The notes under the pieces are model-generated. The model saw nothing but the letters and a program-made list of their open reading frames with translations, was not told where the DNA came from and did not search any database. Positions 4,427 to 47,070 of a stretch of 64,000 nt of DNA are shown one piece after another (within the stretch, counting starts at the first letter, position 1; each line of letters begins with the position of its first letter). Origin of the DNA: Candidatus Methylomirabilota bacterium (GTDB lineage: Bacteria; Methylomirabilota; Methylomirabilia; Rokubacteriales; CSP1-6); contig JBKPAK010000008.1 in NCBI GenBank assembly GCA_046726415.1, forward strand, positions 1-64,000, read 5' to 3'. The position numbers and the translations under genes are program-made.

Positions 4427-4466
4427 TTGACGCGGTTTCATATTTCTATATACTTCGAAATATGAA
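4427..4466 (+). promoter_or_regulatory. arsR promoter with overlapping inverted-repeat operator; probably leaderless
   Basis: TTGACG(4427)-16bp-TATACT(4449); perfect IR TTCATATTTC-N10-GAAATATGAA (4437-4466) spanning the -10 and the ATG. Confidence 0.75.
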
Positions 4467-4761
4467 GACGGTGCCGGTGGCCCGGCTCGAAGCGCAGGCG
4501 CGCCACGTCGAGGCCTTCAAGGCGCTGGCCCATCCCACCCGCCTGCAGGTGTTCTTCTTCCTGGTGCGGGCCGATCGCGAGGTGCCGGCTGGGGAGATCC
4601 AGGCGGAGCTGGAGATTCCCGGGCCCACCCTCTCCCACCACCTCGATCTGCTGCGCCGGGCCGGGCTGGTGACGCGCCGTCGGGAGGAGCGATTCGTCTA
4701 CTACGCGCCGCGGTCCCAGATGGTGTCGGAGCTGGTGCGCCTGCTGACCGCCTGTTGCTAG
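4462..4761 (+). CDS. arsR: ArsR/SmtB family repressor ending in Cys-Cys
   Basis: FKALAHPTRL..TLSHHLDLLRRAGLV HTH; C-terminal LTACC. Confidence 0.9.
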   Translation: MKTVPVARLEAQARHVEAFKALAHPTRLQVFFFLVRADREVPAGEIQAELEIPGPTLSHHLDLLRRAGLVTRRREERFVYYAPRSQMVSELVRLLTACC

Positions 4762-4782
4762 ACCACTGACATGGAGGACATC

Positions 4783-5256
4783 ATGCTCGACGGCCCGAAA
4801 GTGCATGTGCACATGACGGTCTCGGATCTCGCCAAGAGCACGGAGTTCTATGCGAAGTTTCTCGGCGTCGGGCCGATCAAGGAGAAACCCGGCTACGTGA
4901 AGTTTCTCCCGGCTTTCGGGCCGCTTAACCTCGCGCTGTCCGAGTCGCGACCCGGCCAGGGCCGAGGCCACGTCGACCACATGGGCATCCAGGTGGAGAC
5001 CACGGACATCGTTCTGCACGAGCTGGCCCGGGTGAAGGCTGCGGGATTGACGGTGCGCGAGGAGTTCAGCGTCAACTGCTGCCACGCCAACCAGGACAAG
5101 TTCTGGGTGGCCGACCCCGACGGCGTGGACTGGGAAGTCTACGTTCTGAACCACGACCTCGAGGACGGCCCAACCCGCGCTACCGACGCTCACCACATGA
5201 CCCTGGGCAAGGGGCTGACGGTCGCCATGGCCAGTTCCTGCTGCTCGTCGTCGTAG
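4783..5256 (+). CDS. arsI: ArsI/CadI family VOC metalloenzyme (C-As lyase-like)
   Basis: VHVH, DHMG, NCCHANQDKFWVADPDG-WE motifs and a C-terminal CC; GGAGG RBS favours ATG 4783. Confidence 0.85.
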   Translation: MLDGPKVHVHMTVSDLAKSTEFYAKFLGVGPIKEKPGYVKFLPAFGPLNLALSESRPGQGRGHVDHMGIQVETTDIVLHELARVKAAGLTVREEFSVNCCHANQDKFWVADPDGVDWEVYVLNHDLEDGPTRATDAHHMTLGKGLTVAMASSCCSSS

Positions 5257-7791: not shown

Positions 7792-7865
7792 AATCGCCAC
7801 GACCAAGCACCAGGCTGGACTACTAACCAGAAACCGAGTAATTACTACAGGCGTTCACGACGACC

Positions 7866-9971
7866 ATGGCAGCGTCGACGATGACCACCGCGGCACCGTT
7901 CTCTCATTTCCCACGCGAGCGAACGTGGCTGCTCCCCGCCCTCGACGCGGTGCAGCGCGCCGACGGCAGCGTCTCGCCCGCCAGCCTGGCGGCCATTGCC
8001 GCGCATCTGCGCGTGCCTCTCAGCGAGGTCTGGGGCGTGGCGACGCACTACCCGGAACTGCGCTTGACGCCTCCCGGTGGGCGACTCGTCCGCGTGTGTA
8101 CGGGCGTCAGCTGTCGGGTGCGCGGCGGTATCGAACTGCTTCGCGAGTCCCAGCGACGGCTCGGCATACCGGCGGGCGCCACCACCGCCGATGGAGCGAT
8201 CACTCTCGAGGAGATGGACTGCGCCTTCGCGTGCGGAGTCGCCCCCACCATCCAAGTGGGCCACCGTCTCGTCGGTCGCGTGCAGATCGGGGAGCTCGAC
8301 GGTGTGCTCGGGCAGTCGACGTCGACCCACGAGCGTTCGACGCAGCATCCGCGATTCGCCGGCACTGCCGCGGAACCCGCGGGCCTCTCGACGGCGGATG
8401 CGGTAGCCGCATCGCCGGCGGCCCGGTTCGCGCACCTACGGCGCGAGGCCGAGCGCCGCGCGGGAACACCGCGTTTCGTGGTGGGACTGGGCAGTTGCGG
8501 GCTCGCCGTGGGGGCCGGCGAGACGCTCGACGCGCTGAGGGCCGAGATTGCGCGCCGGGAACTGCCGTTCATCGCCGTGGCCGGAGGCTGCAACGGGTCC
8601 TGCTGGGCGGCTCCGGCGGTCAGCGTGCTCCGCGACGGCGCCCCGCCGCTCGTGGCCGGTTCTCTGGCCGCGCCCGACGTGCCGCGCTTCGTCGACGACA
8701 TCGCCTCCGGCGCCGAAGCGGGCCGATGGGAGCTCGATCCGCGCTGGTTCGCCGCCCAACATCGAGTTCTCCTCTCGGGCTGCGGCACCATCGATCCTTG
8801 CGACATCACGGACGCCCTTCGGCGTGGGGCGTACGGCGCGCTGGTGCGCTGCCTCGAGGACACTCGCCCCGCCCGGGTGATCGAGGAGGTCCGGGCGGCC
8901 GGCCTCCTGGGGCGGGGAGGTGCCTACTTCCAGACGGCGGTGAAGTGGGAGGGATGTCGCGCGGCCCACGGAGCCCCCAAATACATCGTCGTCAACGGGG
9001 AGGAAGGCGAGCCGGGGATCTTCAAGGACCGTCACCTCATGGAGGGCGACCCGCACCTGCTCCTCGAAGGCGTTGCGCTGGCCGCCTTCGCAGTCGGCGC
9101 CACGCGGGGCATCGTCTACGTGCACGGCGAAGCCGATCTGTCGGCAGCCCGGCTGGCCGCGGCGATCGAGCAGGCGCGGGCCTGGGGGCTCCTCGGCGAA
9201 CGCATTCTGGGTTCCGACTTCTCGCTCGATCTGACGATCCGCCGGGGCCTGGGCGGTTTCGTCCTCGGCGAGGAGACCGCGCTCCTCGAGTCCATCGAGG
9301 GGCGGCGGGCCATGCCGCGGACGCGGCCGCCGTTTCCAGTGGAATCCGGCCTCTGGGGCAAGCCGACCGTCATCAACAACGTCGAGACGCTGTGCGCGGT
9401 GCCGCCCATCATGGAGCGCGGCGGCGCGTGGTTCGCCCGTCACGGTCGAGGATACGGCACCAAGCTGTTCGGGCTCTCGGGGCAGCTGCGGCGGCCTGGC
9501 GTGGTGGAGGTCGACGTCGGCGTCACCCTCCGCGATTTGATCGACGACTTGGGCGGCGGCCCGTCGTCGGACCACCCGGTGCGGGCGGCGGTGGTCGGCG
9601 GCCCCTCGGGCAGCGTCGTGCACCCCCGCAACTTCGATGAGCCGCTGATCCCCCGTGGCCCAGTGAATCCGGGGACGGGGGGCGTCGCTGCGCTCGATAC
9701 GGAGGGTTCTGTGCGCGACGCCGTGCGCACCGTGCTGGCCTTCAACACGCGCGAGTCGTGCGGGAAGTGCACGCCCTGCCGCGAGGGGACCGCACGTCTC
9801 TTGGCGATGCTCGACGCGCCCCTCGACGTCACGCGGGTGAAGGCGCTGGCCGAGATCATCCAGTTGGCTTCACTCTGCGGTCTCGGGCAGGCCGCGCCGG
9901 TTGCGGTGCTGTCAGGGCTGGCCGAGTTTCCGGAGGAGTTCGGCGCGGTGGACGCGGGGAATCGGCCGTGA
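7866..9971 (+). CDS. NuoE-NuoF (FdsG-FdsB-like) fusion, NAD(H)-linked diaphorase subunit of formate dehydrogenase
   Basis: CTGVSC..CAFAC [2Fe-2S]; second thioredoxin-like Cys domain; GLLGRGGAYF, EEGEPG, GEETAL FMN/NADH motifs; SCGKCTPCREG..SLCGLG [4Fe-4S]. Confidence 0.9.
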   Translation: MAASTMTTAAPFSHFPRERTWLLPALDAVQRADGSVSPASLAAIAAHLRVPLSEVWGVATHYPELRLTPPGGRLVRVCTGVSCRVRGGIELLRESQRRLGIPAGATTADGAITLEEMDCAFACGVAPTIQVGHRLVGRVQIGELDGVLGQSTSTHERSTQHPRFAGTAAEPAGLSTADAVAASPAARFAHLRREAERRAGTPRFVVGLGSCGLAVGAGETLDALRAEIARRELPFIAVAGGCNGSCWAAPAVSVLRDGAPPLVAGSLAAPDVPRFVDDIASGAEAGRWELDPRWFAAQHRVLLSGCGTIDPCDITDALRRGAYGALVRCLEDTRPARVIEEVRAAGLLGRGGAYFQTAVKWEGCRAAHGAPKYIVVNGEEGEPGIFKDRHLMEGDPHLLLEGVALAAFAVGATRGIVYVHGEADLSAARLAAAIEQARAWGLLGERILGSDFSLDLTIRRGLGGFVLGEETALLESIEGRRAMPRTRPPFPVESGLWGKPTVINNVETLCAVPPIMERGGAWFARHGRGYGTKLFGLSGQLRRPGVVEVDVGVTLRDLIDDLGGGPSSDHPVRAAVVGGPSGSVVHPRNFDEPLIPRGPVNPGTGGVAALDTEGSVRDAVRTVLAFNTRESCGKCTPCREGTARLLAMLDAPLDVTRVKALAEIIQLASLCGLGQAAPVAVLSGLAEFPEEFGAVDAGNRP

Positions 9972-12697
9972 TGGCCGAAACGCCGGCCGCGGGTGCGTCA
10001 GCTCCGATGCTCCGCCTGACCATCGACGGCCGCGCGGTCGACGTGTGGTCAGGCGCCACGGTCCTGGACGGGGTCAAGCGCCTGGGGCTATCGCTGCCGC
10101 ACCTCTGCAAAGATGCCGACCGGCCGCCGCTCGGGGCCTGTCGAACCTGCCTGGTGCACGTGGAGGGGATGCGCGGCGTGCCGGCCGCCTGCCACCTGCC
10201 CGCGCGAGACGGGATGGTCGTCGACACGCAGCACCCCGACGCGGTCCGTGTCCGCCAGGGCGTGCTCGACCTCACGCTGTCCATGCTGACGCCGGCTGAG
10301 GAGCGCAACGGCTTTGGTCAGCTCAGCACCGACGTGGTCAGGCACGGCACGCTTGAGCCCACCTATGAACCCTTGCATCACCACCCCGTCGACGCCAGCA
10401 AGTCGTTCTTCGTCCTCGACCGCGAGGCGTGCATCCTGTGCGGCCGCTGTGCGGTGGCCTGCGACGACGTGCAGCACATCGGCGCCATCGCCCTGCTGGG
10501 GCGCGGTCACGCCACGAAAGTGGGCGTGGCCGGAGACGGCCTCATGGCCTCCTCGGTCTGCACATCGTGCGGCCAATGCGTGGCGACGTGCCCGACCGGC
10601 GCCCTCCGCCCGAAGGAGCGACCGGCCAAGATCGCGCGCACCGTCGAGACGACCTGCCCCTACTGCGGCGTGGGCTGCGGGATCGACCTGGCCGTGCGCG
10701 AGGACGAGCGGCTGGCCGTCATGGCTGACGACGTGCCGGCCAATCGCTCCAGCGAAGGCATGCTGTGCGTGAAGGGGCGCTTCGGCACCGGTTTCGTGCA
10801 CGCGCGCGACCGCATTACCGCTCCCATGGTCCGGCGCGACGGGCGCTGGCAGGAGGTTGCGTGGGATCACGCCCTGGACGCCGCGGCGGAGGGGCTCGCG
10901 CGCCATCGCGGCTCCTTCGGAGCGCTGGCTTCCGCCAAGGCCACTAACGAAGACGCCTACGTCATCCAGAAGTTCGTGCGCGCGGTGATGGGCACCAACA
11001 ACGTCGACCACTGCACGCGCCTCTGCCATTCGCCCTCGGTGGAAGCCATGCTGGTATCGATGGGCTCGGGCGCGACGTCCAATTCCTACGTGGACTACGA
11101 GGAAGCGGGCTGCCTGCTGATTGTGGGAGCCGACGCCTCCGCCAACCATCCGGTCATCGCGATCCGCTTCCGCCGCGCTCTGCACCGCGGTGCGCGCATC
11201 GTGGTCGTGAATCCCAAGCGCATCGAGCTGTGCGACCAAGCCGATCTTTGGATCCAGAACCGGCCGGGCACCGATGTGATGCTCTTCAACGCCATGGCCC
11301 GCGTGATCCTGGACGAGGGTCTCGCCGATCTGGACTTCATCGCCCGCCGCACCGAGGGCTTCGAGGCGTGGCGGGCGTCGGTGGGGGAAGCGACCCTCGA
11401 GCATGCCGCCGCGGTGACCGGAGTTCCCGCAGAAGACATCGCCCAGGCCGCGCGCTGGTATGCTCGACCGCCCTTCGCGGGCTCGTGTCTCGTCTGGGGT
11501 ATGGGCATCACCCAACACACCAACGGCATCCACAACGCCCACTCACTGCTCAATCTCTCCCTGGTGGCCGGGCAGCTCGGATTTCCCGGCTCGGGGATCT
11601 CACCGCTGCGCGGCCAGAACAACGTCCAGGGGTGTGGCGACGCCGGCTGCATCCCCACGAATCTCCCCGGCTATCAGAACTACGCGCCGGCGACGCTCGC
11701 GCGGTTTGAGGAGCGATGGGGCATTCGCCCGCCGGGGGCGCCGGGCCTCGTCGTGACCGAAATGGTCGAGGGATGCCTGACGGGCGACGTCCGGGCCATG
11801 TACGTGGTGGGCGAAAACCCCCTGCTCTCCGAGCCCGATCTCCATCACGCCGAAAAAGCCATCGGCCAGCTCGACTTCCTGGTGGTGCAGGACCTGTTTC
11901 TCCACGAGACCGCCGAGCACGCACACGTGTTCCTGCCCGCGGCCGCGTTCGCCGAGAAGGAAGGGACGTTCACCAATTCCGAGCGGCGCGTGCAGCGCGT
12001 GCGCAAAGCCATCGAGCCGATCGGCCTGGCCCGTCCGGACTGGTGGATCACCGCGGAGTTGGCCAAGCGCGCGGCGGCGAAGCTCGGCCTCGACGTGAAA
12101 GGCCAGTTCGAGTACACCGGCGCCGCCCAGATCTTCGACGAGATGGCGAGCGTCACGCCGTTCCTGGCCGGCATGTCCCACCACCGCCTGGACCGCGAGG
12201 GCGGCCTCCAGTGGCCCTGCCCCAGCGCGGACCACCCCGGGACGCGTTTCCTGTACGCGGAGTCGTTCCCGCTCGGCCGGGCGCGGTTCGTCCCGGCCCT
12301 CCAGACACGCGAAGCGGCCGAACTGCCCGATCCCGACTATCCCTTCGTGCTCAACACCGGGCGACTCCTCTACCACTGGCACGGCGGGACGATCACCCGG
12401 CGAGTGGAGGGTTTGCTGGAGCTGGCGCCGCGCCTGGAGGTCGCCGTACATCCGAGCGACGCCCGCCGCCTCGGCATCGACACCGGCTCGCTCATTCGCC
12501 TGACGTCGCGCCGCGGAGAGCTGACCGGCTACGCCCGCGTCACCGAGGCGGTTCGCGCCGGTGCGGTGTTCGTGCCCTTCGTCAAGCTGGCCGATTCCGC
12601 CGCGAACTTCCTGACGAACTCCGCCTTCGATCCGTCGTCCAAGATCCCGGAGTACAAGGTCTGCGCGGTCCGGATCGAGCGCGTGGAGGCGCCGTAA
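9971..12697 (+). CDS. fdhF: Formate dehydrogenase alpha subunit (Mo/W-bis-PGD, Cys ligand)
   Basis: TGATG coupling to upstream gene; CRTCLV, two CxxCxx[36 protein letters not shown]. Confidence 0.95.
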
Positions 12698-12836
12698 GTC
12701 TCGGCTGCGCTTCTCGGCAGCGGCGGCGATCCCGATGTGTCCGGGCGCCGTGCCCAACGAACAGGCTATACTGCTGCCGATCTTGCACACCACGCCGACT
12801 CGCTCGGCTCCGACCATCCGCGCGAGGAGATCCCGC

Positions 12837-14507
12837 ATGGGGAAGAGTGACATTCAGATCGCCCAGGAGGCCAAGCTCCAGCCGATCCAGGCGATCGGTG
12901 AGACGCTCGGTCTGAGGGAATCAGACCTCGAGGTCTACGGGCGCTTCAAGGCGAAGCTGACCACTGAGGCGATCGAGCGGCTGCGCGAGCGGCCCGACGG
13001 CGTGCTGGTGCTCGTCACCGCGATGACCCCCACGCCCGCCGGCGAAGGGAAGTCGACCACCACGGTCGGGCTGGGTGACGCTTTCCGGAGAATCGGCAAA
13101 CGGTCGATGGTGGCGATTCGCGAGCCGTCGCTGGGGCCGTGCTTTGGCATCAAGGGCGGAGCGGCCGGCGGCGGATACGCCCAGGTCATGCCGATGGAGG
13201 ACATCAACCTCCATTTCACCGGGGACTTCCACGCGGTGACCTCCGCCCACAATCTCTTGGGCGCCGTGCTCGACAACCACATCTTTCAGGGCAATGCCCT
13301 CGGCTTCGACGTCCGGCGGGTGGCCTGGAAGCGCGTGCTCGACATGAACGAGCGCGCCCTGCGCAACGTCGTGCTGGGCCTCGGCGGATCCGCGCACGGC
13401 GTGCCCCGGGAATCGGGCTTCGAGATCACCGCGGCCTCCGAGATCATGGCCGCGCTCTGCCTGGCCTCCGATCTCGCCGATCTGAAGGCGCGTGTGGCGC
13501 GGATGATCGTGGGCGAGCGCCCCGACGGGAGCTTCATCGCCGCGGGTGAACTGAAGGTGGCAGGGGCGCTGACCGTGCTCCTCCGGGATGCGCTCAGGCC
13601 CAACCTGGTGCAGACCCTGGAGGGCACGCCGGCCTTCGTGCACGGCGGCCCGTTTGGCAACATCGCCCACGGCTGCAACAGCCTGATCGCCACGCGGGCG
13701 GCCCTCAAGCTCGCCGAGGTTGTGGTGACCGAGGCCGGCTTCGCCACCGAGCTGGGCGCCGAGAAGTTCTTCGACATCAAGTGCCGGGCGGGAGGGCTGA
13801 CGCCATCGGCCGCGGTGATCGTGGCCACCGTGCGCGCACTCAAGATGCATGGCGGCGTGGCGCGGGATCGCCTGGCCACCGAGAACGTGGAGGCCGTTGG
13901 CGCGGGCCTGGCCAATCTGGAGAAGCACGTGGAGAACGTGCGGCACTTCGGCGTCCCGCCGGTGGTCGCCCTCAACCACTTCACGACAGACAGTGGCGCG
14001 GAGGTGGCCGCAGTCATGGAAGCCTGCGCGCGCTTCGGCGTGCCCGCACGGCTCTCGCGCGTGTGGGAGCGGGGCGGGGACGGCGGCACGGATCTGGCCC
14101 AGGCGGTGCTGGCCGCGATGGGCACCGGTTCGGAATTCCACCCGCTCTATCCGGCCGCCATGCCACTGACTCAGAAGATCCACGCCATCGCCAGAGCGCT
14201 CTACGGAGCTGCCGGCGTGACCCTGCTCACGGCCGCGGCCACCAAGCTGGCGAAGTACGAAACCATGGACCACGGCCATCTGCCCGTGTGCATGGCGAAG
14301 ACCCAGAATTCGCTGTCGGACGATCCCCAGAAGCTGGGTCGGCCCCGCGACTTTACCGTGACCATCCGCGACGCCAAGCTCGCGGCGGGGGCCGGGTTCG
14401 TGGTGGCGTATGCCGGCGACATCCTGACGATGCCCGGCCTTCCCAAGAAGCCGGCGGCGGAGTCGATCGACATCGACAAAGACGGGAACGTCGTCGGGCT
14501 GTTCTGA
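12837..14507 (+). CDS. fhs: Formate--tetrahydrofolate ligase
   Basis: [52 protein letters not shown]. Confidence 0.97.
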
Positions 14508-14511
14508 GCCG

Positions 14512-15435
14512 CTGAGCACACCCTCGCCTTCCGCGCCGACCCGGCTCGAGTGCGTGCCCAACGTCAGCGAGGGTCGCGACCCTCGCGTGATCCGCGCCCT
14601 GACTCAGGCCGTCCGTTCCGGAGGCGCCGATCTGATCGACGTGCATAGCGATGTCGATCATCATCGGTCCGTCTTCACGTTCCTGGGTTCGGCTCCGGCC
14701 GTGGAGAGATCGGCCCTCGCACTAGCCGTCGTGGCCATCGACCTGATCGACCTCCGGCGACATGACGGCGTCCATCCCCGCGTGGGCGCGGTCGACGTCA
14801 TTCCCTTCGTACCCCTCCGCGGTTCATCCATGGACGATGCCGTCGCCGCCGCGCGCCGACTAGGAGCCGCCCTGGCCGCGGCGTGCCAGCTGCCCGTCTT
14901 TTTCTACGGTGAAGCGGCGCGGAGTCCGGCCCGCCGCGAGCTGCCGGAGCTGCGCCGCGGGGGCTTCGAGCAACTCGCCCACCGCCTCAGCGGTCCTGAC
15001 GGGAGGCCGGACGCCGGTCCGCCGGCGCCACATCCCACCGCCGGCGCTTGTGTCGTGGGTGCTCGCCGTCCCCTCATCGCGTTCAACGCGGTTCTCGACG
15101 GCGACGACGTCGACGTGGCTCGGGCTATCGCACGCGCCATTCGCGCGTCGTCAGGAGGTCTGGAGGGCGTGCAGGCCATGGGGGTGAGGCTACCCAGCCG
15201 CGGGCTCGTGCAGGTGTCGCTGAATCTCATCGACAACCGGCGCACGTCACTTCTCACGGTTGCCCAGACGATCGCGGCCGAGGCGGCCCGCCGGGGCACA
15301 GCGGTGCGAGAGTACGAGCTGGTGGGATGCGCGCCGGCCGATGCCGTGGCCGACTGGCCCGCCCCGCTCGCCCCCATCGTGGGACTCGAGCCGGCGCAGC
15401 TGCTCGATCCCGCGCTGTTCGCCGCCGAGTGCTGA
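14512..15435 (+). CDS. ftcD: Glutamate formimino/formyltransferase (stand-alone FT domain)
   Basis: LECVPNVSEGRD, DVDHHRSVFT, HDGVHPRVGAVDVIPFVP, GARRPLIAFN; start uncertain (CTG 14512 or GTG 14554). Confidence 0.92.
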   Translation: MSTPSPSAPTRLECVPNVSEGRDPRVIRALTQAVRSGGADLIDVHSDVDHHRSVFTFLGSAPAVERSALALAVVAIDLIDLRRHDGVHPRVGAVDVIPFVPLRGSSMDDAVAAARRLGAALAAACQLPVFFYGEAARSPARRELPELRRGGFEQLAHRLSGPDGRPDAGPPAPHPTAGACVVGARRPLIAFNAVLDGDDVDVARAIARAIRASSGGLEGVQAMGVRLPSRGLVQVSLNLIDNRRTSLLTVAQTIAAEAARRGTAVREYELVGCAPADAVADWPAPLAPIVGLEPAQLLDPALFAAEC

Positions 15436-15505: not shown

Positions 15506-16489
15506 TCAGCTCTCGCGACGTTCCCTCGCCACCGCGCCACCGCGCCCGAGCGCCCGTGGTCGGGTGCGGCGAGCTGACGGCCGGCGCCGGGCGTGCGGCG
15601 CGGGAACCTCGCGGACGGCGGCCCGGAATACCTGAAGCAACGCCCGGGCCTCGACCTTGAGGGGACGTTGCCGCGGATGGATGACGTCGAGGCTGCGCCG
15701 GAGGGGCTCGGCGTCCACGATATCGAGGGCCAGGAGCTTGCCATCCTGGATCTCGCGCGCCACGGCCAAGTGGGGAAGGAGGGTCAGGCCAAGACCTCGT
15801 TCCACCATGCGCTTGGCCGTCTCGATCGTCTCGACCTCCATCACCACATTGGGCACGAGTCCCGCCGCGCGGAAGAGTCCGTGGGTCAGCGTCCAGTCGC
15901 TCGAACCGCGATCGAAGAAGATGAGCGGCTGATCAGCCAGCTCCTGAAGCCGTAGGCCCCGGGTGCGTCGCGGCCAGGCCGCCGGCGCCGCCATGAGGAT
16001 GAGCGGGTCGTCGCGTAGGCTAAGGGTCTCGACCTCGGGATGGTGCAGCGACCGGGCCAGTCCCAGTTCCGCCTCACCGCGGAGGACCATGTCCAAGACT
16101 TCCTTGGAGTGGCCCGATCGCACGGTGATGGTGACGCCCGGGTGGGCGGCTCGAAAGCGCTTGAGCACGTCGGGTAACAGATAGGTGCAGATCGAGAGGG
16201 CGGCGGCAATCTGCACGGCGCCGCCCGCGGCGGGGCGCAGATCGTGCACAGCCTGGCGGGCGAGGGCCACCGCGCGTAGAAGCTGCTCGGCCTGGGGGCG
16301 CAGCGCGCGGCCTGCCGGGGAGAGGCCGAGCTCCGACCCGCGTTCGAAAAGGGACACGCCGAGGGAGTCTTCGAGCGCGCGGATGCGCGCGCTGACCGCC
16401 GGCTGGGTGAGCCGCAGGGCCTCGGCCGCCCGCCGGAATCCGCCGAAGGTACCCACGGCCAGGAAGGCCTCGATCTGCCCGATCTCCAC
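15506..16489 (-). CDS. LysR family transcriptional regulator
   Basis: FRRAAEALRLTQPAVSARIRALE HTH; GGAGGT RBS before GTG 16489. Confidence 0.93.
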   Translation of the reverse strand: MEIGQIEAFLAVGTFGGFRRAAEALRLTQPAVSARIRALEDSLGVSLFERGSELGLSPAGRALRPQAEQLLRAVALARQAVHDLRPAAGGAVQIAAALSICTYLLPDVLKRFRAAHPGVTITVRSGHSKEVLDMVLRGEAELGLARSLHHPEVETLSLRDDPLILMAAPAAWPRRTRGLRLQELADQPLIFFDRGSSDWTLTHGLFRAAGLVPNVVMEVETIETAKRMVERGLGLTLLPHLAVAREIQDGKLLALDIVDAEPLRRSLDVIHPRQRPLKVEARALLQVFRAAVREVPAPHARRRPSARRTRPRALGRGGAVARERRES

Positions 16490-16522
16490 GGCGGCACCTC
16501 CTGATTCTCGCGCTGTATAGGC

Positions 16523-16544
16523 CGATAAAAATAATCTGTTATCG
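16523..16544. promoter_or_regulatory. Putative LysR binding site in AT-rich divergent intergenic region
   Basis: CGATAA-N10-TTATCG inverted repeat. Confidence 0.45.
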
Positions 16545-16629
16545 CCCTGATAGAAACAATGATTTTGATCGAGATCGATCGACGCGGCATGCTGACCCCG
16601 GCGCATCACCACGAGGCCCGGAGGAGACC

Positions 16630-20693: not shown

Positions 20694-21800
20694 CTATCGT
20701 TCAGACCCCAGGCCGGCTCGGCTCCGCCGCCCATGAAACGCGTGGTTGATCAGTCGGCGGACCTCGGCGCCCTGCAGCGTTGCCGGCGCCAGACCATGGC
20801 GCCCCAGGATGCCGCGCGCATGGCGGTCGTCGAAGCAGACGTCGTGAGTCAGATAGTCGCGGTAGCGCCCGAGCATTGCGCGGAGGCGGCGTTCGAGCCG
20901 AGAGGCGTCGGCGATGGGACGCCCGCGCGCATCCACGAGGGCGAAGCCCCGCACGCCCAGTCGCGTCGTGAGCATGCGAAGCATCGCATCCTGTCGGGGG
21001 GCATCGGCCACCACGAGGTGGAAGGTACCGCCGGCCGCCTCCGAGCATCGCGCGAGGGCGAGAATCCCGCGGGCCACATACCCGATCGGTACGATGTTGA
21101 AGCGAGCGCCAGGCGCGGCCTCGATGCGCAGGGGCACGGTGGCTCCGGCGGCGAGGGTGGAGGCTATGCGAATGAACTGAAAGAAGAGATTCGAAGGGGT
21201 GCCACCGGGCGTCTCCGGCGCCCGCCCCACGACGATGCTCGGCCGGAACACGCGAACGTCGAGCCCCCGGCGCCCGCCGGCCGCGCGGATCGCCGTCTCG
21301 GCCTCGAGCTTCACGCGTTCGTAGGGGTTGCGGAAATCCTGGCCGACGTCGCCCTCGGTCTCGAAGACCGTCCCGGAGCGTCGCCCGCAGACGTAGGCCG
21401 TGGAGAGCTGCGCCCACGTCGCGAGGCGTCCCGGGGCGAGCATCTCCAGAAGGCTCACTGGCCCGTGCACGTGACTGGCGTAGAAGCCCTCGGGACATTC
21501 GGGGAAGAGGGCGGTTTCGCCCGCACAGTGGATCACCGTCTCCACCGTATCGCGGAGCCGGGTGCGCTCGGCCGCGGCGAGGCCGGCGGCGGGTTCGCCG
21601 AGATCGCCCTCGATGAGCTCGAGGTCGACCGGTTCCCGCCGCCCACCCAGCGCCGCCGCAACCCGAGCCGTCGCGCTCTCGCCGTGGCGAGACCGCGCCA
21701 ACACGGTGACGGGCGCGCCTCCGGCGAGCAGGCGCCGGGCCACCGCGCCCCCGATGAAGCCAGTGACGCCCGTCACGAGGATGCGCGCCGTGGACCTCAC
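20694..21800 (-). CDS. Extended SDR, male-sterility/thioester reductase-like NAD-binding protein
   Basis: LVTGVTGFIG, STAYVCG, NPYERVK, RPSIVVG; GTGA overlap with upstream gene. Confidence 0.85.
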   Translation of the reverse strand: MRSTARILVTGVTGFIGGAVARRLLAGGAPVTVLARSRHGESATARVAAALGGRREPVDLELIEGDLGEPAAGLAAAERTRLRDTVETVIHCAGETALFPECPEGFYASHVHGPVSLLEMLAPGRLATWAQLSTAYVCGRRSGTVFETEGDVGQDFRNPYERVKLEAETAIRAAGGRRGLDVRVFRPSIVVGRAPETPGGTPSNLFFQFIRIASTLAAGATVPLRIEAAPGARFNIVPIGYVARGILALARCSEAAGGTFHLVVADAPRQDAMLRMLTTRLGVRGFALVDARGRPIADASRLERRLRAMLGRYRDYLTHDVCFDDRHARGILGRHGLAPATLQGAEVRRLINHAFHGRRSRAGLGSER

Positions 21801-22543
21801 GGGAGGGAGCCTCGCGGGACCGATGACACCCATGGGCTCCCCGGCGGCCGGTCGTCCGGACCTCGCCAGCGACGTGCGTAGCGCTGGGTATCCAGTCCGA
21901 GCGTGTGGAGCAACAGCAGCCACACGATGAAAGCAAACGTCCGACAGGGGCCGCGGGCGAGGAAGCGCCGCCCCGAGGTGAGGATTGGTGTCCTGATGAG
22001 AGCGGTCTTACCCAGGCGTTTGAGCCGCTGGCTCAGGATCAAATCCTCCATGAGGGCGAGATCTGGATAGCCGCCGAGATCGCGGAAGACCGATGCACGG
22101 ACGAAGATCCCCTGGTCGCCGTAGTAGTTCCGCGTGAGGCGATAGCGGATGCGGTTGATGAGGTTGATGACGGCGAGACTCCACGCCGGCTCGATGAAGC
22201 GGTGGGCGAAGGCGCCACCCACGATGCGATCGTCAGCCATCACCCCTTTGATGAGCGATACGGCGTCAGCCGGGGGCAGTGAGTCGGCGTGCAGGAACCA
22301 CAGGATGTCGCCGCCCGCGACGGATGCGCCGTTGTTCATCAGGGCCGCGCGGGTCGACCCCACGGGGGTCAGGGCGCGCGCCCGCCCCCCCACAACGCGC
22401 GCGGTCTCGTCCGCGGATCCCGCCGCGGCGACGATCACCTCGACGTCGCCCTGGTGGGAGAGTGTGACCAGATGATCGAGCGTCCGGCCGAGAGCCTCGG
22501 CGTCGTTGCGCGCCGGAATGATGAGCGAGATGGAAGGCGCCAT
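21797..22543 (-). CDS. GT2 glycosyltransferase, TIGR04283 (rSAM/selenodomain-associated, arsenosugar-linked) type
   Basis: SLIIPARND, MNNGA..FLHADS, YGDQGIFV..F..LGGYPDLALMED, TSGRR. Confidence 0.85.
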   Translation of the reverse strand: MAPSISLIIPARNDAEALGRTLDHLVTLSHQGDVEVIVAAAGSADETARVVGGRARALTPVGSTRAALMNNGASVAGGDILWFLHADSLPPADAVSLIKGVMADDRIVGGAFAHRFIEPAWSLAVINLINRIRYRLTRNYYGDQGIFVRASVFRDLGGYPDLALMEDLILSQRLKRLGKTALIRTPILTSGRRFLARGPCRTFAFIVWLLLLHTLGLDTQRYARRWRGPDDRPPGSPWVSSVPRGSLP

Positions 22544-22724
22544 CAGGAGCGCTCGGCGCCTGGCGCAGCAGCCATGGGATCGTTGGCGTTCACGCCGAGA
22601 TCCGTGGATCCGTTTGACGATAGGGGCGTGGTGGTGTGGTCACGCTTTCTAGGATGCCCCATCGACCGCACGGCGTGTCAAAGTTCAGTCAACTCCCGAG
22701 CGTCGCCCGCCTGCTCCGTCGAGC

Positions 22725-22833
22725 CAGTAGTGCGAGCCGCAGGACGGCGTGGGGCTGGGGCCCCACCGTCCGAGGCGAGCGTCTGCAGTAGTGCGAGCCG
22801 CAGGACGGCGTGGGGCTGGGGCCCCACCGTCCG
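22725..22833 (+). repeat. Tandem pair of 48-bp REP-like hairpin repeats
   Basis: Identical CAGTAGTGCGAGCCGCAGGACGGCGTGGGGCTGGGGCCCCACCGTCCG at 22725-22772 and 22786-22833, 13-bp spacer. Confidence 0.9.
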
Positions 22834-22891
22834 CGTACGATTTGACACCGCTGTGACGACTTTCGGTTCGCCCCGATCGAGACTGGCATCC

Positions 22892-23425
22892 ATGAGGACA
22901 CGATCGTCGGCAGGGGTGATACTGGTCGGCGCCGTGGCCCTGCTGTTGGTGGGGCTGCTCCCGGCCCGAGCGCAGGCGCCCCGCATCGGCCAGCCCGCCC
23001 CGGACGTCACGGGCGGACCGTGGATCAATAGCGCCCCGCTTACCCTCGACGGGCTGCGCGGGCGTGTGGTGTTGGTGGAGTTCTGGACGTACGGGTGAAT
23101 CAACTGCCAACACGTGATCCCGCAGTTGCGGGCCTGGCACGAACGGTACGAGGCGCGCGGACTCACCATCGTCGGCGTGCACAGCCCGGAGTTTTTCTGG
23201 GAGCGCTCGCGCGACAGCGTGGTGAACGCCTGCACGCAGTTGGGCGTCCGGTACCCGGTGGTGCAGGACAATGACATGGCCATCTGGAAGCGCTACGGGG
23301 TGCGAGCGTGGCCCACGGCTGTCCTCATCGATCGGGTCGGCATCATTCGGTACCGACACATCGGCGAAGGCGCGTACGAGGAGATGGACGCCATGATCCG
23401 GCGACTTCTGGCGGAGAACGGGTGA
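22892..23425 (+). CDS. Exported thioredoxin-like redoxin (DipZ C-terminal/TlpA-like), probable selenoprotein with UxxC
   Basis: Signal peptide; LRGRVVLVEFWTYG-TGA(23096)-INC..GLTIVGVHSPEF..YPVVQDN..WPT..HIGEG, all one frame; ORF track splits it in two. Confidence 0.85.
23101..23139 (+). other. Candidate bacterial SECIS hairpin
   Basis: TGCCA/TGGCA lower stem plus CCCGC-AGTT-GCGGG upper stem; alternative fold CAACTGC/GCAGTTG. Confidence 0.55.
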
Positions 23426-23432
23426 GTCCGAC

Positions 23433-24944
23433 CTGACGTCCATCCGCGCCCGCCTCTGGCTCCTGGCTCTCCTGGCCATTGCGGTGCCGGCCGCCATCGT
23501 GGCTGTCCTGGGCTACGTCTCCTTGCGCCACTGGCAGACCTCGGCCGACCTCCTCTTCCGCGAGCAGGCGCGCGACATGGCGGCGATGGCCGTCGACAAG
23601 ATCGAAATGACCTTGCGCGAAACGGAGAACGACATGCTCGGCCAGCTCCAGGGAGCTCTCGATGCGCCGGCTCCGCTGGCGGCATCGCTCGACGCCTTCC
23701 TGAAGGCTCACTCCCTCGTGCGCCGGCTCTACCTGTTCGATCGCGGCGGCGAGTTGCTCTACCCGGCGACGCGCCATGAGAGCGACGCGCTCATCTTCGC
23801 CCGGCTCCTGGCCGAGGTCTCGCAGGAATTCTGGGACCGAGGTGGACGACGGGAGCTGACGGGTGGCGACCAGATCGCGCTGGCGACTATCCTCCGTGGT
23901 CCGGATGGGCGGCCGGCCCTCGCCACCTTGACTTGGAACATCGAGGTCCTGTGCGAGGCCATCCTGGCTCGCACCGTCCGCGCGCTGGAAGCGCCCACCA
24001 TCCTCGCCGTCGTCGACGGCCGCGATCGGCCGATCTTTAGCAAGGAGTCGCTCGCAGGTGCCGATCGCCTGGCCGCCGTGCCGTTTCGTGAGCGACTGGC
24101 CAGCTGGCGCCTGGCGGTCTACCAGCCTCCCGGCGATTCGCCGCGCCAGGCCGTCCGTCGCCAGGTGATGTTCTTCACGTGCGCGTTCGCCGCGCTCCTG
24201 GCCGTCATCGTGGCCGGTATCGCGGTCACCTGGCGCCTCGCGCGGCGGGAGGCGGAGATGGCCCAGCTCAAATCCGACTTCGTGGCCAACGTATCTCACG
24301 ATCTGAAGACGCCGCTTTCCGTGATCCGGATGTTCGGAGAGACGCTCGAGATGGGACGTGTGACCGAGGAGACCCAGCGCAGGGAGTACTACGGCGTGAT
24401 CGCGCGAGAAAGCGAGCGGCTTTCGCGGCTCATCGAGAACGTCCTGGACTTCGCCCGCATCGAGGATGGCCGCCGCACCTACGCGATCGTGCCCACGGCC
24501 GTCGAGCCCGTGATCCGCGATACCCTCGAGGCCTTCAGCCATCCGCTGACGAGCGGTGGATTCGAGGTTGAGGTGTGCATACCCCCCGATCTGCCCGACG
24601 TGCCGATGGATGGCGAAGCCGTTTCCCAGGCCTTGTCCAATCTGCTCGACAACGCCATCAAGTACTCAGCCGCGCGCAAGGTGCTTGCCATCGAAGCGCG
24701 GGCCATCGACGGGGAACTGGCCATCTCCGTAGCCGACGCCGGCGTCGGCATCCCGCGCGGGGAGCAGACCCGGATCTTCGACAAGTTCTATCGGGTGGGG
24801 CGGAGCGAGACGCAGGGCCGGCGCGGGAGCGGGATGGGGTTGGCTCTCGTCCGGCATATCGCCGAGGCCCACCGCGGCCGGATCACCGTGCAGAGCACGC
24901 CGGGTGAGGGGAGCCGCTTCACCCTGTGGCTTCCCCTCGGCTGA
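23433..24944 (+). CDS. Membrane sensor histidine kinase
   Basis: Two TM helices; FVANVSHDLKTPL H-box, NLLDNAIKY, DAGVGI, GSGMGL; start uncertain (CTG 23433 or GTG 23484). Confidence 0.92.
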   Translation: MTSIRARLWLLALLAIAVPAAIVAVLGYVSLRHWQTSADLLFREQARDMAAMAVDKIEMTLRETENDMLGQLQGALDAPAPLAASLDAFLKAHSLVRRLYLFDRGGELLYPATRHESDALIFARLLAEVSQEFWDRGGRRELTGGDQIALATILRGPDGRPALATLTWNIEVLCEAILARTVRALEAPTILAVVDGRDRPIFSKESLAGADRLAAVPFRERLASWRLAVYQPPGDSPRQAVRRQVMFFTCAFAALLAVIVAGIAVTWRLARREAEMAQLKSDFVANVSHDLKTPLSVIRMFGETLEMGRVTEETQRREYYGVIARESERLSRLIENVLDFARIEDGRRTYAIVPTAVEPVIRDTLEAFSHPLTSGGFEVEVCIPPDLPDVPMDGEAVSQALSNLLDNAIKYSAARKVLAIEARAIDGELAISVADAGVGIPRGEQTRIFDKFYRVGRSETQGRRGSGMGLALVRHIAEAHRGRITVQSTPGEGSRFTLWLPLG

Positions 24945-24947
24945 GCC

Positions 24948-25622
24948 GTGCCGCGGGTCCTGATCGTCGACGACGAGCCGGAGATCGTGCGGGGCATCGA
25001 AGACAATCTGCGGTTCGAGGGCTACCAGACGCTCGCCGCCACCAACGGGGAGACGGGCCTGGCGCTGGCGTGCCAGGAGGCGCCCGACCTCATCCTGCTC
25101 GACATCATGATGCCGAGAGTGAGCGGCTGGGACGTGTGCCGCGAGCTGCGCCGCCGCGGCATCGACGTGCCGGTGATCATGCTGACCGCCCGCGCGGAAG
25201 AAGCCGACCGCGTGCGCGGGCTCGAATTGGGCGCCGACGACTACATCACCAAGCCCTTCTCGGTGCGGGAACTGATGGCGCGCGTGCACGCGGTGCTCCG
25301 GCGGCCGGGACCGCGCCGCAAGGCGGCGCTGCTGGCCTTCGGCGACGTCCGCATCCATATCCAGGCCCGGCAAGTGTTCAAGGGCGGGCGCGAGGTTCCG
25401 ATGACGCGCAAGGAGTTCGATCTGCTCGTCTATCTGGTCGAACACCGCGGGGAGATCGTCACGCGGGAGCGGCTGCTCGATCAGGTGTGGGGTTACGAGC
25501 GCTTTCCCACCACGCGCACGGTGGACACGCATATCCTCAGGTTGCGGCGGAAATTCGAGGTCGACCCCGACTGTCCCGCGTTCATCTTGACCGTGCACGG
25601 ACAGGGCTACAGATTCGCGTGA
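24948..25622 (+). CDS. OmpR-family response regulator
   Basis: LIVDDE, LLDIMMP, GADDYITKPF, winged-helix C-terminus. Confidence 0.95.
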   Translation: MPRVLIVDDEPEIVRGIEDNLRFEGYQTLAATNGETGLALACQEAPDLILLDIMMPRVSGWDVCRELRRRGIDVPVIMLTARAEEADRVRGLELGADDYITKPFSVRELMARVHAVLRRPGPRRKAALLAFGDVRIHIQARQVFKGGREVPMTRKEFDLLVYLVEHRGEIVTRERLLDQVWGYERFPTTRTVDTHILRLRRKFEVDPDCPAFILTVHGQGYRFA

Positions 25623-25658: not shown

Positions 25659-26612
25659 ATGCTGATCCGACGCGCTCCGATGATCCGGGAGTCCGACGTC
25701 ACCGACGAAACCGTCTACCTCAATCGGCGCGCCTTCATGACGGGCCTTGGGGCGGTGGCTCTGGTCGGCACCGCCGCGCACTCGGAGGCGGCACCGCCCG
25801 CGCCAGCCGGGCTGGCCGCCACGCCGAATGCCGCGTACCGGCTGGCCGATCCGACGACGAAATGGGAGGAGGCCACCACCTACAACAATTTCTACGAGTT
25901 CGGCGTCAACAAGGACGATCCCGCCCGGCTGGCGCACACCTTGCGGCCGCGGCCGTGGACCGTGCAGGTCGAGGGCTTGGTGGCCAAGCCCCGCCCCTTC
26001 GATATCGACAGCCTCATGAAGCTGGCGCCCATGGAAGAGCGCATCTATTCGCTGCGCTGCGTGGAGGGCTGGTCGATGGTGATTCCCTGGATCGGCTTCC
26101 CGCTCGGGGCCCTCTTGAAGCGGGTGGAGCCGACCAGCCAGGCGAAGTACGTCGAGTTTGCGACCTTGGTCGACCCGGAGCAGTTTCCGGGCCAGCGCAA
26201 GGGCCTCTTCGGTTTCTCGAGCCTCGAGTGGCCCTACATCGAGGGGCTACGGCTCGACGAGGCCATGCACCCGCTGACGCTCCTCACCTTCGGGATGTAC
26301 GGCAAGGTGCTGCCCCACCAGAACGGCGCTCCCGTGCGCGTCGTGATTCCGTGGAAGTACGGCTTCAAGAGCGCCAAGTCTATCGTGCGCATCCGGCTCA
26401 CCAGCGACGAGCCCAAGACTGCGTGGCACAAGGCCCAACCGAGCGAGTATGGCTTCTATTCGAACGTCAACCCAACGGTAGACCATCCGCGCTGGAGTCA
26501 GGCCACCGAGCGCCGAATCGGCGAGTTCCGCCGGCGCAAGACCCTCATGTTCAACGGATACGACCAGGTGGCGTCGCTCTACACGGGCATGGATCTGGGG
26601 AAGTACTACTGA
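25659..26612 (+). CDS. msrP: Protein-methionine-sulfoxide reductase catalytic subunit
   Basis: Tat [43 protein letters not shown]. Confidence 0.96.
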
Positions 26613-26615
26613 CTC

Positions 26616-27242
26616 GTGTCCCGCCGCGCGCGACTCGGGTTGAAGGCCGGGGTGTGGGTCCTCTGTCTCCTCCCCTTGGCGTTCCTGACCACGTGGGCGT
26701 GGACCGGCGATCTCACCGCCAATCCCATCAGCTTCATCACGAACTGGCTGGGCGACTGGGCGCTGCGCATCTTGCTCGCCAGCCTCGCCCTCACCCCAAT
26801 GCGCCTGCTGTTCGGGATCGCCTGGCAGATGCCGCTGCGCCGCCTGCTCGGGCTCTTCGCGTTCTGCTACGTGTGCCTCCATTTTCTCGTCTGGCTCGCC
26901 GTCGATCACTTCTTCGACTGGCGACAGATGGGCACGGACATCGCGAAGCGCCCCTACGTCACCTTGGGCATGGCCGCCCTCCTCTGTTTGATCCCGCTGG
27001 CGGCCACCTCGACCTCGCGCATGGTCAAGCGCCTGGGCGCGCCGACCTGGCGCCGGCTCCACCGCCTGGCGTACGCCGCCGGCATCCTCGCCAGCCTGCA
27101 CTTCCTGTGGCTGGCCAAAGTCGGCCGTGTCGAGCAGTATATCTACGCCGGCGCGCTCGGACTCCTGCTGGGAGTGCGCCTCTGGTATGCTGCCCAGCGG
27201 CGCATGCGAAGCTGGATCACCCAGCCGAGAGAGATCGCGTGA
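26616..27242 (+). CDS. msrQ: Protein-methionine-sulfoxide reductase heme-binding subunit
   Basis: LALTP, RRLLGLFAF.Y..LH, KRPY, WRRLHRLAY; follows msrP. Confidence 0.95.
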   Translation: MSRRARLGLKAGVWVLCLLPLAFLTTWAWTGDLTANPISFITNWLGDWALRILLASLALTPMRLLFGIAWQMPLRRLLGLFAFCYVCLHFLVWLAVDHFFDWRQMGTDIAKRPYVTLGMAALLCLIPLAATSTSRMVKRLGAPTWRRLHRLAYAAGILASLHFLWLAKVGRVEQYIYAGALGLLLGVRLWYAAQRRMRSWITQPREIA

Positions 27243-43638: not shown

Positions 43639-44211
43639 CTAGGTCCCGGTGCCCGGAGTGGCGGCGGATGTCTCGGCGTCTGCGGTGACCTCCGCGCTCT
43701 CCAGCGCAACCGCGGCGGCATTGATGGTGGCGGCAATCCGGACGGCGTCGTTGACGTGGTCGGCAGTGAGGCCGCCGTCCATCACCACCTTCTCGTGGGC
43801 GCGGATGCACATCTCGCAGCCGTTGATGGCGCTGACGGCGAGCGAGAACAGCTCGAAGTCCGTCCTGTTCGTAGCGGGCTGCACCAGGCGGTTCATGCGC
43901 AGTCCGGCCGCCTTCTCGGCGTAGACGGGCTTGCCCACCATGTGGCGGAATCGGTAGTAGACGTTGTTCATGGCCATGAGCGCGGCGGCGGCCGTGGCAT
44001 CTTCCAGGACGGCAGCATCCACGACCCGCGCGGCATCGGCGGTGATCGCGGCCCGCAGCCGGCGGTTGCGGGCGGCGATGGCCGACGCCACCGCCACCCC
44101 CCAGCGCTGAGGCTCGGAGAGCGCGCCGCCCTTCAACACGGTCGGCAGATTGAGCCGGATGTCCTTGGCGGCCTCGGGGAGGGCCGCCCGGAGTGCGTCG
44201 ATCGCGTGCAT
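43639..44211 (-). CDS. ahpD: Alkyl hydroperoxidase AhpD
   Basis: AKDIRLNL, MAMNNVYY, AVSAINGCEMC..HE. Confidence 0.94.
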   Translation of the reverse strand: MHAIDALRAALPEAAKDIRLNLPTVLKGGALSEPQRWGVAVASAIAARNRRLRAAITADAARVVDAAVLEDATAAAALMAMNNVYYRFRHMVGKPVYAEKAAGLRMNRLVQPATNRTDFELFSLAVSAINGCEMCIRAHEKVVMDGGLTADHVNDAVRIAATINAAAVALESAEVTADAETSAATPGTGT

Positions 44212-44213
44212 GA

Positions 44214-47065: not shown

Positions 47066-47070
47066 GTCCC

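Follow-up and report, generated by a model that had tools for sequence, protein, structure and literature searches.

Gene organization and annotation

The sequence analyzed here is a stretch of 64,000 nucleotides, referred to throughout as the window, from a Candidatus Methylomirabilota bacterium (assembly GCA_046726415.1, contig JBKPAK010000008.1, positions 1 to 64,000 of the forward strand). At positions 22892-23425 (+) it carries a gene for a thioredoxin-fold redoxin, predicted to be exported, which begins with an ATG at 22892. Its 177 codons form a single frame that is broken internally only by a TGA at 23096-23098. As 68 codons precede this TGA [(23096-22892)/3], it is codon 69, and the surrounding protein sequence reads VVLVEFWTYG-U-INCQHVIPQLR when it is translated as selenocysteine (Sec, U). 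On the evidence presented below, this is very probably a genuine bacterial selenoprotein gene, encoding a secreted redoxin of the DipZ/TlpA/ResA type in which UGA is read as selenocysteine.

Such a gene had been proposed in an initial annotation made from the sequence alone, which placed the TGA at the first cysteine of a WxxxCxxC motif. Recomputation returned the same frame of 177 codons with the same sole break, and in alignments the TGA codon falls opposite the first Cys of GCINC in homologues. The gene as defined here (22892..23425) draws on the frame, the Pfam matches, the homologue starts and the predicted fold. It opens with a signal-peptide-like N-terminus (residues 1-27, 22892..22972). 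The partner of U69 in the U69-I-N-C72 active site is encoded by a TGC at 23105..23107; this residue, Cys72, would be the resolving residue of the UxxC motif, and its column is at least 90% invariant in a 29-sequence alignment. A stem-loop of the selenocysteine insertion sequence (SECIS) type follows at 23113..23141, as indicated by its fold, by published criteria for bacterial SECIS (bSECIS) elements and by synonymous constraint. The true terminal stop is also a TGA (23423..23425), and no hairpin meeting the bSECIS criteria comes after it.

Both halves of the frame look coding, as the initial annotation had judged. The G+C content at third codon positions (GC3) amounts to 0.90 before the internal TGA and to 0.92 after it, in a window with 68% G+C. 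The Pfam matches of the read-through protein span the TGA; they are to AhpC-TSA (58.4 bits, cutoff 26), Redoxin (52.0 bits, cutoff 26.6) and Thioredoxin_8 (48.1 bits, cutoff 27). A scan of both window strands for in-frame TGA codons with coding-like flanks returned three sites, of which the one in the redoxin gene is the sole intragenic case. The other two are gene junctions, between the histidine kinase and response regulator genes and between the MsrP and MsrQ genes described below. No promoter-like or terminator-like site was found within 22400-23700.

Existing annotation represents this gene by its downstream part. The list of open reading frames (ORFs) holds, in place of the full gene, a GTG-started ORF of 103 amino acids (23114..23425, +), whose start codon lies 18 nt past the TGA. 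A protein of 103 amino acids that is 100% identical to this C-terminal part is already present in the protein database (P0060). The protein search retrieved 3096 relatives at E <= 0.001 among 3714 candidates, and five 103-residue proteins stand among the best 120: P0060 and four others with 82-87% identity (P0087, P0090, P0115, P0119), which share its first residue, just past the active site. A further match of this length (P0132) was obtained in an exhaustive search of representatives. Such fragments are what results when a gene caller halts at the TGA and begins anew at the GTG that opens ORF 23114-23425, so the earlier expectation that standard annotation would split the gene proved right. 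The fragment relatives are named ‘peroxiredoxin’ by the database sources.

Alternation of TGA and cysteine codons among relatives

DNA of relatives was collected with one genome per species, yielding at least 62 loci from a set that did not contain the window’s own genome. Most are metagenome-assembled genomes (MAGs) titled Rokuibacteriota, Methylomirabilota or Binatia, and the best identity to the window redoxin is 77%. Two of the 62 loci end before the site, which leaves 60 that cover codon 69. Among the matches listed, this codon is TGA in 47 of the 60 covering loci and TGC or TGT in 13; the ratio is no population estimate, and one of the search patterns carried Cys. One locus (L049) holds two Cys copies, giving 14 Cys sites, and TGC or TGT is present at all 14 sites that lack TGA. 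The initial annotation had suggested looking for TGA/Cys alternation at this column, and this is what the relatives display. With the window included, the frame stays open for at least 100 codons past the TGA in 48 of 48 TGA sequences.

These data bear directly on whether the gene is simply a Cys-redoxin damaged by a nonsense mutation, that is, a pseudogene, or one in which TGC or TGT was miscalled through a sequencing or assembly error. Full-length Cys forms are indeed numerous in the protein database, at 60-74% identity, and gene callers do take the redoxin gene as truncated (P0060). Against this, the same codon is TGA in 47 independent assemblies at 46-77% identity with intact downstream frames, GC3 is of coding type on both sides of the codon, and the hairpin past the TGA is under synonymous constraint, as described in the next section. 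We thus regard error and pseudogenization as excluded, with a negligible residual probability; a sequencing error was among the outcomes that the initial annotation had named as fatal to its proposal. General reassignment of TGA is likewise excluded, because TGA is the usual stop codon in this sequence, ending 29 of 43 predicted window genes.

A conserved stem-loop downstream of the TGA

The stem-loop at 23113-23141 consists of an upper stem in which CCCGC (23119-23123) pairs with GCGGG (23128-23132), an apical loop AGUU (23124-23127) and a lower stem in which CGUG (23113-23116) pairs with CACG (23138-23141). The loop begins 25 nt after the UGA. As folded over 33 nt, the hairpin has an energy of -13.0 kcal/mol and makes up 88% of the ensemble; its core has an energy of -8.3 kcal/mol. 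In section 5 of the review PMC13188914, the bSECIS model calls for a loop with 3-9 nt and an upper stem with 4 bp or more; the first two loop positions include a G, after which comes G or U, the UGA and the loop are 16-37 nt apart, and the energy is -7.5 kcal/mol or lower. We coded these criteria strictly, allowing contiguous stems only. The window site passes them (spacing 25, loop 4, stem 5, -8.3 kcal/mol), in line with the folding and bSECIS checks that the initial annotation had recommended. It resembles the consensus of that source in its loop of 4 nt, its stem of 5 bp and the U that comes after a G at loop position 2. It differs in having no curated Rfam match; SelB would presumably bind it.

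When sequences are folded individually, a hairpin is present at the equivalent place in 48 of 48 TGA sequences, with energies from -10.1 to -18.5 kcal/mol. Its sequence is specific to the clade: CCCGC-AGUU-GCGGG is one form, GCCUUG-GGU-CAAGGC is found in the Methylomirabilis group, and AUCCCCA-GUU-UGG(U)GGAU, with a bulged U, occurs in two Binatia sequences. The hairpin of one further locus (L047) reads UCCCG-AGUUUG-CGGGA. Early in its loop, every variant has a G with G or U after it. In the scan with the coded criteria, 45 of 48 TGA (Sec) sites pass, compared to two of 14 Cys sites (L021 and L059); of the 29 TGA codons that truly end window genes, none passes. Across all TGA trinucleotides on both strands of the window, 94 of 1474 pass (6.4%).

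The strongest single result for a SECIS element is the synonymous constraint on the codons that form it. The codons ATC CCG CAG TTG CGG, which specify I-P-Q-L-R, are invariant at the nucleotide level wherever these residues are encoded, in 36 of 36 cases for Ile and in 40 of 40 for each of the other four; the set is made up of those distinct TGA sequences, 40 in number, in which P-Q-L-R is encoded. As a control, 48 other conserved columns of the redoxin gene have a mean codon entropy of 0.93 bits, and only two of the 48 are invariant. Across 15 window genes with 836 Leu codons, the conserved Leu codon TTG has a share of 7%. Its replacement by CTG would keep the stem and change the loop from AGUU to AGCU. 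Among the close Cys forms, L027 has CTG, has lost that loop and fails the bSECIS criteria; in L021, the hairpin is still intact.

This pattern helps to distinguish selenocysteine insertion from two selenium-free outcomes that a hairpin might stimulate, namely readthrough of the UGA by a near-cognate tRNA for Trp or Cys, or termination followed by re-initiation. The GTG start 18 nt past the TGA (ORF 23114-23425) would suit re-initiation, and no Sec machinery is seen within the 64-kb window. On the other hand, the loop G-U of the SelB-binding consensus is kept through the rare TTG in 40 of 40 sequences even though CUG would spare the stem, and L027, a close Cys form that uses CTG, no longer has a loop that satisfies the criteria. 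Wherever this column lacks TGA it encodes Cys (14 of 14 sites), which is the pattern commonly left by Sec/Cys exchange. In addition, judging by the structural model, a split at residue 69 would leave the active-site residue apart from both strand 1 and its partner in the CxxC motif. Use of Sec is also reported for the phylum in the portion of PMC13188914 available. Decoding without selenium is therefore very improbable, and we continue with the reading of UGA as selenocysteine.

Evidence against selenocysteine insertion

Several observations weigh against this reading or fail to support it, most of them concerning the RNA. The energy of the hairpin is not exceptional (z = -1.72), since 16 of 200 shuffles of the 33 nt are as stable, as are 38 of 1000 synonymous resamples of the window sequence, 12 of 1000 of L045 and 54 of 1000 of L042. 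Folding energy by itself is thus weak evidence. RNAalifold, applied to an ungapped alignment, returned five pairs at -0.45 kcal/mol. Pairing in a fixed register is 87.0% compared to 84.5% in shuffles, and both-sided change is found in two of ten pairs, a level reached by 260 of 500 shuffles. Three TGA sites (L041, L042, L046) fail the contiguous-stem version of the bSECIS criteria. Rfam gave no match at gathering score across the whole window, and matches near the site are at chance level (E = 2 and 5.4). The first fold, made over the 65 nt after the TGA, yielded a different structure, an AACUGC/GCAGUU stem with a 14-nt loop and z = -0.70. This candidate was rejected as a SECIS because its pairing is absent from Methylomirabilis-clade sequences; the hairpin that the initial annotation had reported after the TGA is accordingly best represented by the conserved one at 23113-23141.

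Also to be set against the proposal are the searches for Sec genes. Among 49 ORFs of the window scanned with NCBIfam there is no selA, selB or selD, and the 64-kb window holds no tRNA at all, including tRNA-Sec. ARAGORN detected no tRNA-Sec in 60 of the 62 related loci (L061 and L062 were left out). Two short motifs for SelB-type GTPase and SelD had no match in 894 kb, of which approximately 830 kb are related loci, in what was a crude screen. The absence of Sec genes from the window and these approximately 830 kb is uninformative rather than negative.

The poor covariation has an identifiable source. Within the main clade the hairpin does not vary, and that of the Methylomirabilis clade is displaced by one base; this difference in register between clades accounts for the near-empty RNAalifold result. 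With invariance on one side and a register shift on the other, classical covariation can show little. For this reason, we rely on per-sequence folds, the criteria scan and the synonymous constraint.

Indications of selenocysteine use in the group

Selenoproteins may be used more widely among these bacteria. The contig of one TGA-containing relative (L023) carries a second gene (7855-8478, -) with an in-frame TGA, in the context VEFADYQ-U-PVC. Its product is a DsbA-like protein, predicted to be exported, with matches to Thioredoxin_4 (115.6 bits) and DSBA (64.8 bits), and a 7-bp hairpin, GCCCAGC-AGGU-GCUGGGC, lies 22 nt past the TGA. This gene is a second candidate selenoprotein and would provide indirect support for the use of Sec in the group. 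Moreover, 63 selenoprotein genes were predicted in one Methylomirabilota MAG by Deng et al. 2026, as cited in the available text of PMC13188914.

Two other loci of the window touch on selenium or on enzymes of one-carbon metabolism. The top NCBIfam match of a LysR regulator (15506-16612, -) is ‘selenium metabolism-associated LysR family transcriptional regulator’, at 167.8 bits and under the cutoff of 250. Immediately before it in the sequence is a one-carbon cluster (9758-15435, +) encoding formate dehydrogenase alpha, formate-tetrahydrofolate ligase and glutamate formimidoyltransferase. The formate dehydrogenase alpha of the window has 979 amino acids, a NuoG-like N-terminal extension and an unbroken frame, and is therefore not a TGA form.

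Protein family, fold and export

The redoxin is likely to be exported through a signal peptide resembling those of the Sec pathway. Its N-terminus consists of MRTRSS, a hydrophobic stretch and ARA before QAP, and has no lipobox Cys; cleavage would be expected after these first 27 residues. MR is also the start of homologues, at the equivalent position, and relatives have similarly hydrophobic N-termini. In an AlphaFold2 model built from the 29-sequence alignment, residues 1-30 are of low confidence and contain a lone helix at 10-20. The secreted selenoprotein of 177 residues put forward by the initial annotation is hence supported as regards the selenoprotein, with secretion suggested by the signal-like N-terminus.

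The remainder of the model is well defined, with a mean predicted local distance difference test (pLDDT) score of 91.7 and a predicted template modelling (pTM) score of 0.83. A strand at 59-65 leads into a helix at 70-89, and U69 and C72 are located at the N-terminus of this helix, as in CxxC oxidoreductases. By sequence, the closest solved structure is the C-terminal thioredoxin-like domain of DipZ (E 1.1e-37), which has C-I-N-C opposite U-I-N-C. Next are the thioredoxin (Trx)-like domains of SOQ1 (E 5.2e-30) and NHLRC2 (E 2.4e-22), followed by ResA (4nmu, E 1.2e-13), with other TlpA/CcmG-type proteins ranked below. Foldseek comparison of the model with DipZ gave E 8.2e-19, a template modelling (TM) score of 0.80 and 40% identity.

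The protein is under the cutoff of each more specific NCBIfam model that it matched: the ResA subfamily (70.5 vs 170), DsbE (35.6 vs 123.15), TlpA (21.4 vs 230) and PRK15000 peroxiredoxin C (20.6 vs 301). Among selenoprotein redoxin models, those with any match are also under cutoff, namely WAxxUGC_long (32.7 vs 300) and a SelL-related model (22.7 vs 120). On the basis of these scores, the redoxin is classified as a DipZ-like member of the TlpA-like superfamily that belongs to none of those named families.

An alternative is that the selenoprotein is a peroxiredoxin (Prx)-like peroxidase acting directly on peroxides, not a disulfide reductase. The top Pfam match is to AhpC-TSA, the sources label the fragment relatives ‘peroxiredoxin’, and T66 stands three residues before U69, which is the TxxU spacing of Sec-peroxiredoxins as described in the available text of PMC13188914. 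The Prx motif PxxxTxxC/U of the same source is nevertheless incomplete, as Val62, seven residues before U69, is found where that motif has Pro. In addition, the solved structures closest to it belong to disulfide reductases or to Trx-like domains (DipZ, SOQ1, NHLRC2, ResA, CcmG/DsbE), the FWxxxUxxC motif with a resolving Cys three residues on is TlpA/ResA-like, and the score against PRK15000 peroxiredoxin C is far below its cutoff. A direct peroxidase is accordingly unlikely, and the protein is treated below as a thiol-disulfide oxidoreductase.

Evolution of the Sec and Cys forms

A maximum-likelihood tree was constructed from 62 sites and 114 columns with the Sec/Cys column masked; it has few columns and a midpoint root only. 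On this tree, the U/C label must change three times. One group of 50 rows (support 81/50) contains every one of the 48 TGA sequences along with two nested Cys forms, and the inner 46 rows of this group have support of 96/87. One of the nested Cys forms, L021, is the sister of the TGA form L028 (99/75). The tree would fit a single gain of Sec followed by two reversions to Cys.

Some contigs of Rokubacteria type that encode the TGA-redoxin with a histidine kinase and response regulator (L034, and also L029, L032, L039, L013 and L035) come from MAGs with unexpected titles, which include Nitrosotalea (an archaeon), Limnocylindria, Deferrimicrobiaceae, ‘delta proteobacterium’ and Chloroflexota. Their sequences nest among Methylomirabilota in the tree. 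Mis-binned contigs seem more likely than gene transfer.

Gene neighborhood and linkage to msrPQ

The redoxin gene is followed on the same strand by a histidine kinase gene (23484-24944, +), after a gap of 58 nt, and by genes for an OmpR/PhoB-type response regulator (24948-25622, +), MsrP (25659-26612, +; NCBIfam 472.9 bits vs cutoff 207) and MsrQ (26616-27242, +; NCBIfam 154.5 bits vs cutoff 130). Homologues of M16-type peptidases come after MsrQ. Upstream and divergent is a glycosyltransferase gene (21797-22543, -) with a match to the NCBIfam model ‘arsenosugar biosynthesis glycosyltransferase’ (198.2 bits, cutoff 182).

Among relatives, downstream sequence of 4.5 kb or more is available for 36 of the 47 TGA loci. 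MsrP is encoded within 4.5 kb downstream in 26 TGA loci, out of these 36 and of the 47 overall, and MsrQ accompanies it in 25 of the 26. The MsrP gene directly adjoins the redoxin gene in 12 of them, and in 14 it lies behind the histidine kinase and response regulator. A further six TGA loci have the two-component system without MsrP, and two have neither. Of the eight Cys loci with at least 4.5 kb downstream, one has the two-component system without MsrP and six have neither; MsrP stands beside the redoxin in a single Cys locus, L021, on a shorter contig.

The order of histidine kinase, response regulator, MsrP and MsrQ resembles the HprSR (YedVW)-msrPQ module of Escherichia coli, here placed after a redoxin gene. 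In that organism, msrPQ is under the control of YedVW (HprSR) and is induced by hypochlorous acid and reactive chlorine species, according to the available text of 10.1101/2021.09.09.459708 and PMC9302797. As described there, the E. coli module has no redoxin gene, unlike that of the window. The response regulator of the window scores 158.8 bits against HprR, for which the cutoff is 353, so the likeness is one of gene order and not of established orthology. The arrangement suggests, by gene order, that the redoxin shares a role with msrPQ in defence of the envelope against oxidative damage. To our knowledge, MsrP requires no thioredoxin.

Other features lie around the upstream end of the cluster. 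A homologue of the upstream glycosyltransferase precedes the redoxin in several related loci. Between this divergent gene and the redoxin gene are two perfect direct repeats of 48 nt (22725-22772 and 22786-22833, +), spaced 61 nt from start to start. Each holds an internal palindrome (GGACGGCGTGGGGC...GCCCCACCGTCC), and these are the only two copies in the window when up to three mismatches are allowed. The repeats could be an element resembling repetitive extragenic palindromes (REP-like) or a binding site for a regulator.

Proposed mechanism and function

A mechanism can be proposed on this basis. The ribosome would decode the UGA at 23096-23098 as selenocysteine, with the stem-loop at 23113-23141 and its AGUU loop presumably recruiting SelB together with Sec-tRNA(Sec). 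The product would be a pre-protein of 177 residues with an N-terminal export signal, and its mature form would be a periplasmic thioredoxin-fold thiol-disulfide oxidoreductase of the type of the DipZ C-terminal domain, TlpA and ResA. U69, at the N-terminus of helix 1, would be the attacking nucleophile, and C72 would resolve the mixed selenenylsulfide. The oxidized Se-S bond may then be re-reduced by a membrane reductase of the CcdA/DsbD type encoded elsewhere in the genome; among the window ORFs scanned (49 by NCBIfam and 11 further by Pfam), there is no such reductase. What is said here of the exact activity, the substrate and the reductant is an inference. The gene order points to a likely role in reductive repair or defence of the envelope under oxidative stress, with co-expression of the periplasmic methionine-sulfoxide reductase, because the redoxin gene usually heads a cluster with a two-component system and msrPQ.

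Relationship to known families

Redoxins with a UxxC motif have been catalogued as selenoproteins from the first computational screens onward. With DipZ (PDB 2hyx, 5cyy), the window protein shares FW(A/T)Y(S/G)-C-I-N-C opposite FWTYG-U-I-N-C, and the xINC motif is common to the related Trx-like domains of SOQ1 (7djj) and NHLRC2 (6gc1). Those three proteins carry Cys where the window redoxin has Sec, and their redoxin domains are fused within longer chains (352-360 residues for 2hyx/5cyy, 579-667 for SOQ1 and NHLRC2), in contrast to the stand-alone protein of 177 residues in the window. TlpA, ResA and CcmG (DsbE) are alike in fold (Foldseek TM scores to target of 0.87-0.91), in exported location, which is predicted here, and in their WxxxCxxC-type motif. 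The window redoxin differs from them in its scores below all NCBIfam cutoffs, in the absence of an adjoining cytochrome c maturation gene and in having Sec for Cys.

The closest published selenoprotein families are those in Table 1 of PMC13188914. The available part of this source lists three relevant redoxin entries, each of them UxxC, including ‘Prx-like thiol:disulfide oxidoreductase’ (PF00578) and ‘Redoxin family protein’ (PF08534); another catalogued family is ‘Thiol-disulfide isomerase-like protein’, and ‘Prx-like 3’ is listed in the available text from the GOS (Global Ocean Sampling) study, PMC2398784. The window redoxin resembles the Table 1 families in its Pfam domains, its UxxC motif, the replacement of the first Cys by Sec and the many Cys homologues. 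Compared by domain and motif, it may already be one of the families in that portion of PMC13188914 or may form a subfamily of its own. By titles and abstracts, the literature on selenocysteine in Rokubacteria and Methylomirabilis gives no account of this protein. Likewise, one BSepDB supplement has no entry naming Methylomirabilota, Redoxin, thiol or Prx-like, and BSepDB may well list it elsewhere.

We consider it possible, though rather doubtful, that the U-I-N-C redoxin represents an undescribed Sec subfamily of the DipZ/SOQ1/NHLRC2-type domain, gained once near the base of Methylomirabilota/Rokubacteria-Binatia, reverted to Cys at least twice, and serving as the selenium-dependent thiol arm of an envelope oxidative-damage module with a dedicated two-component system and MsrPQ. 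If this were true, selenium supply could gate expression of the envelope module through the efficiency of UGA decoding, because the redoxin is the first gene of the cluster.

The classification has practical consequences for annotation. The window gene is likely to appear in annotations as a fragment of 103 residues or as a pseudogene, and so are no fewer than 47 orthologues from public MAGs. A widespread redox enzyme, predicted to be periplasmic, of abundant soil and groundwater bacteria is thus missing from functional inventories. The gene adds a well-supported selenoprotein, predicted to be exported, to a phylum recently reported as selenoprotein-rich. It also supplies a clade-wide example of a SECIS element with measurable synonymous constraint, and its linkage to a two-component system and msrPQ leads to an idea, open to testing, about selenium in the defence of the envelope against oxidative stress. 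Knowledge of how Sec is encoded is unchanged.

Other genes of the window

Further genes related to stress and redox processes are distributed across the window. An ArsR/SmtB regulator is encoded beside a metalloenzyme of the ArsI/CadI family (4462-5256, +). An AhpC-like peroxiredoxin (44214-44756, -) and an AhpD-family alkylhydroperoxidase (43639-44262, -) are encoded in ORFs that overlap by approximately 49 nt, and both frames are unbroken. An error-prone DNA polymerase of the DnaE2 type (46924-50367, +; 1230.8 bits vs cutoff 939) is preceded by a short ORF for a RecA-like fragment (44988-45563, +). The fragment and the polymerase may together form a mutagenesis cassette.

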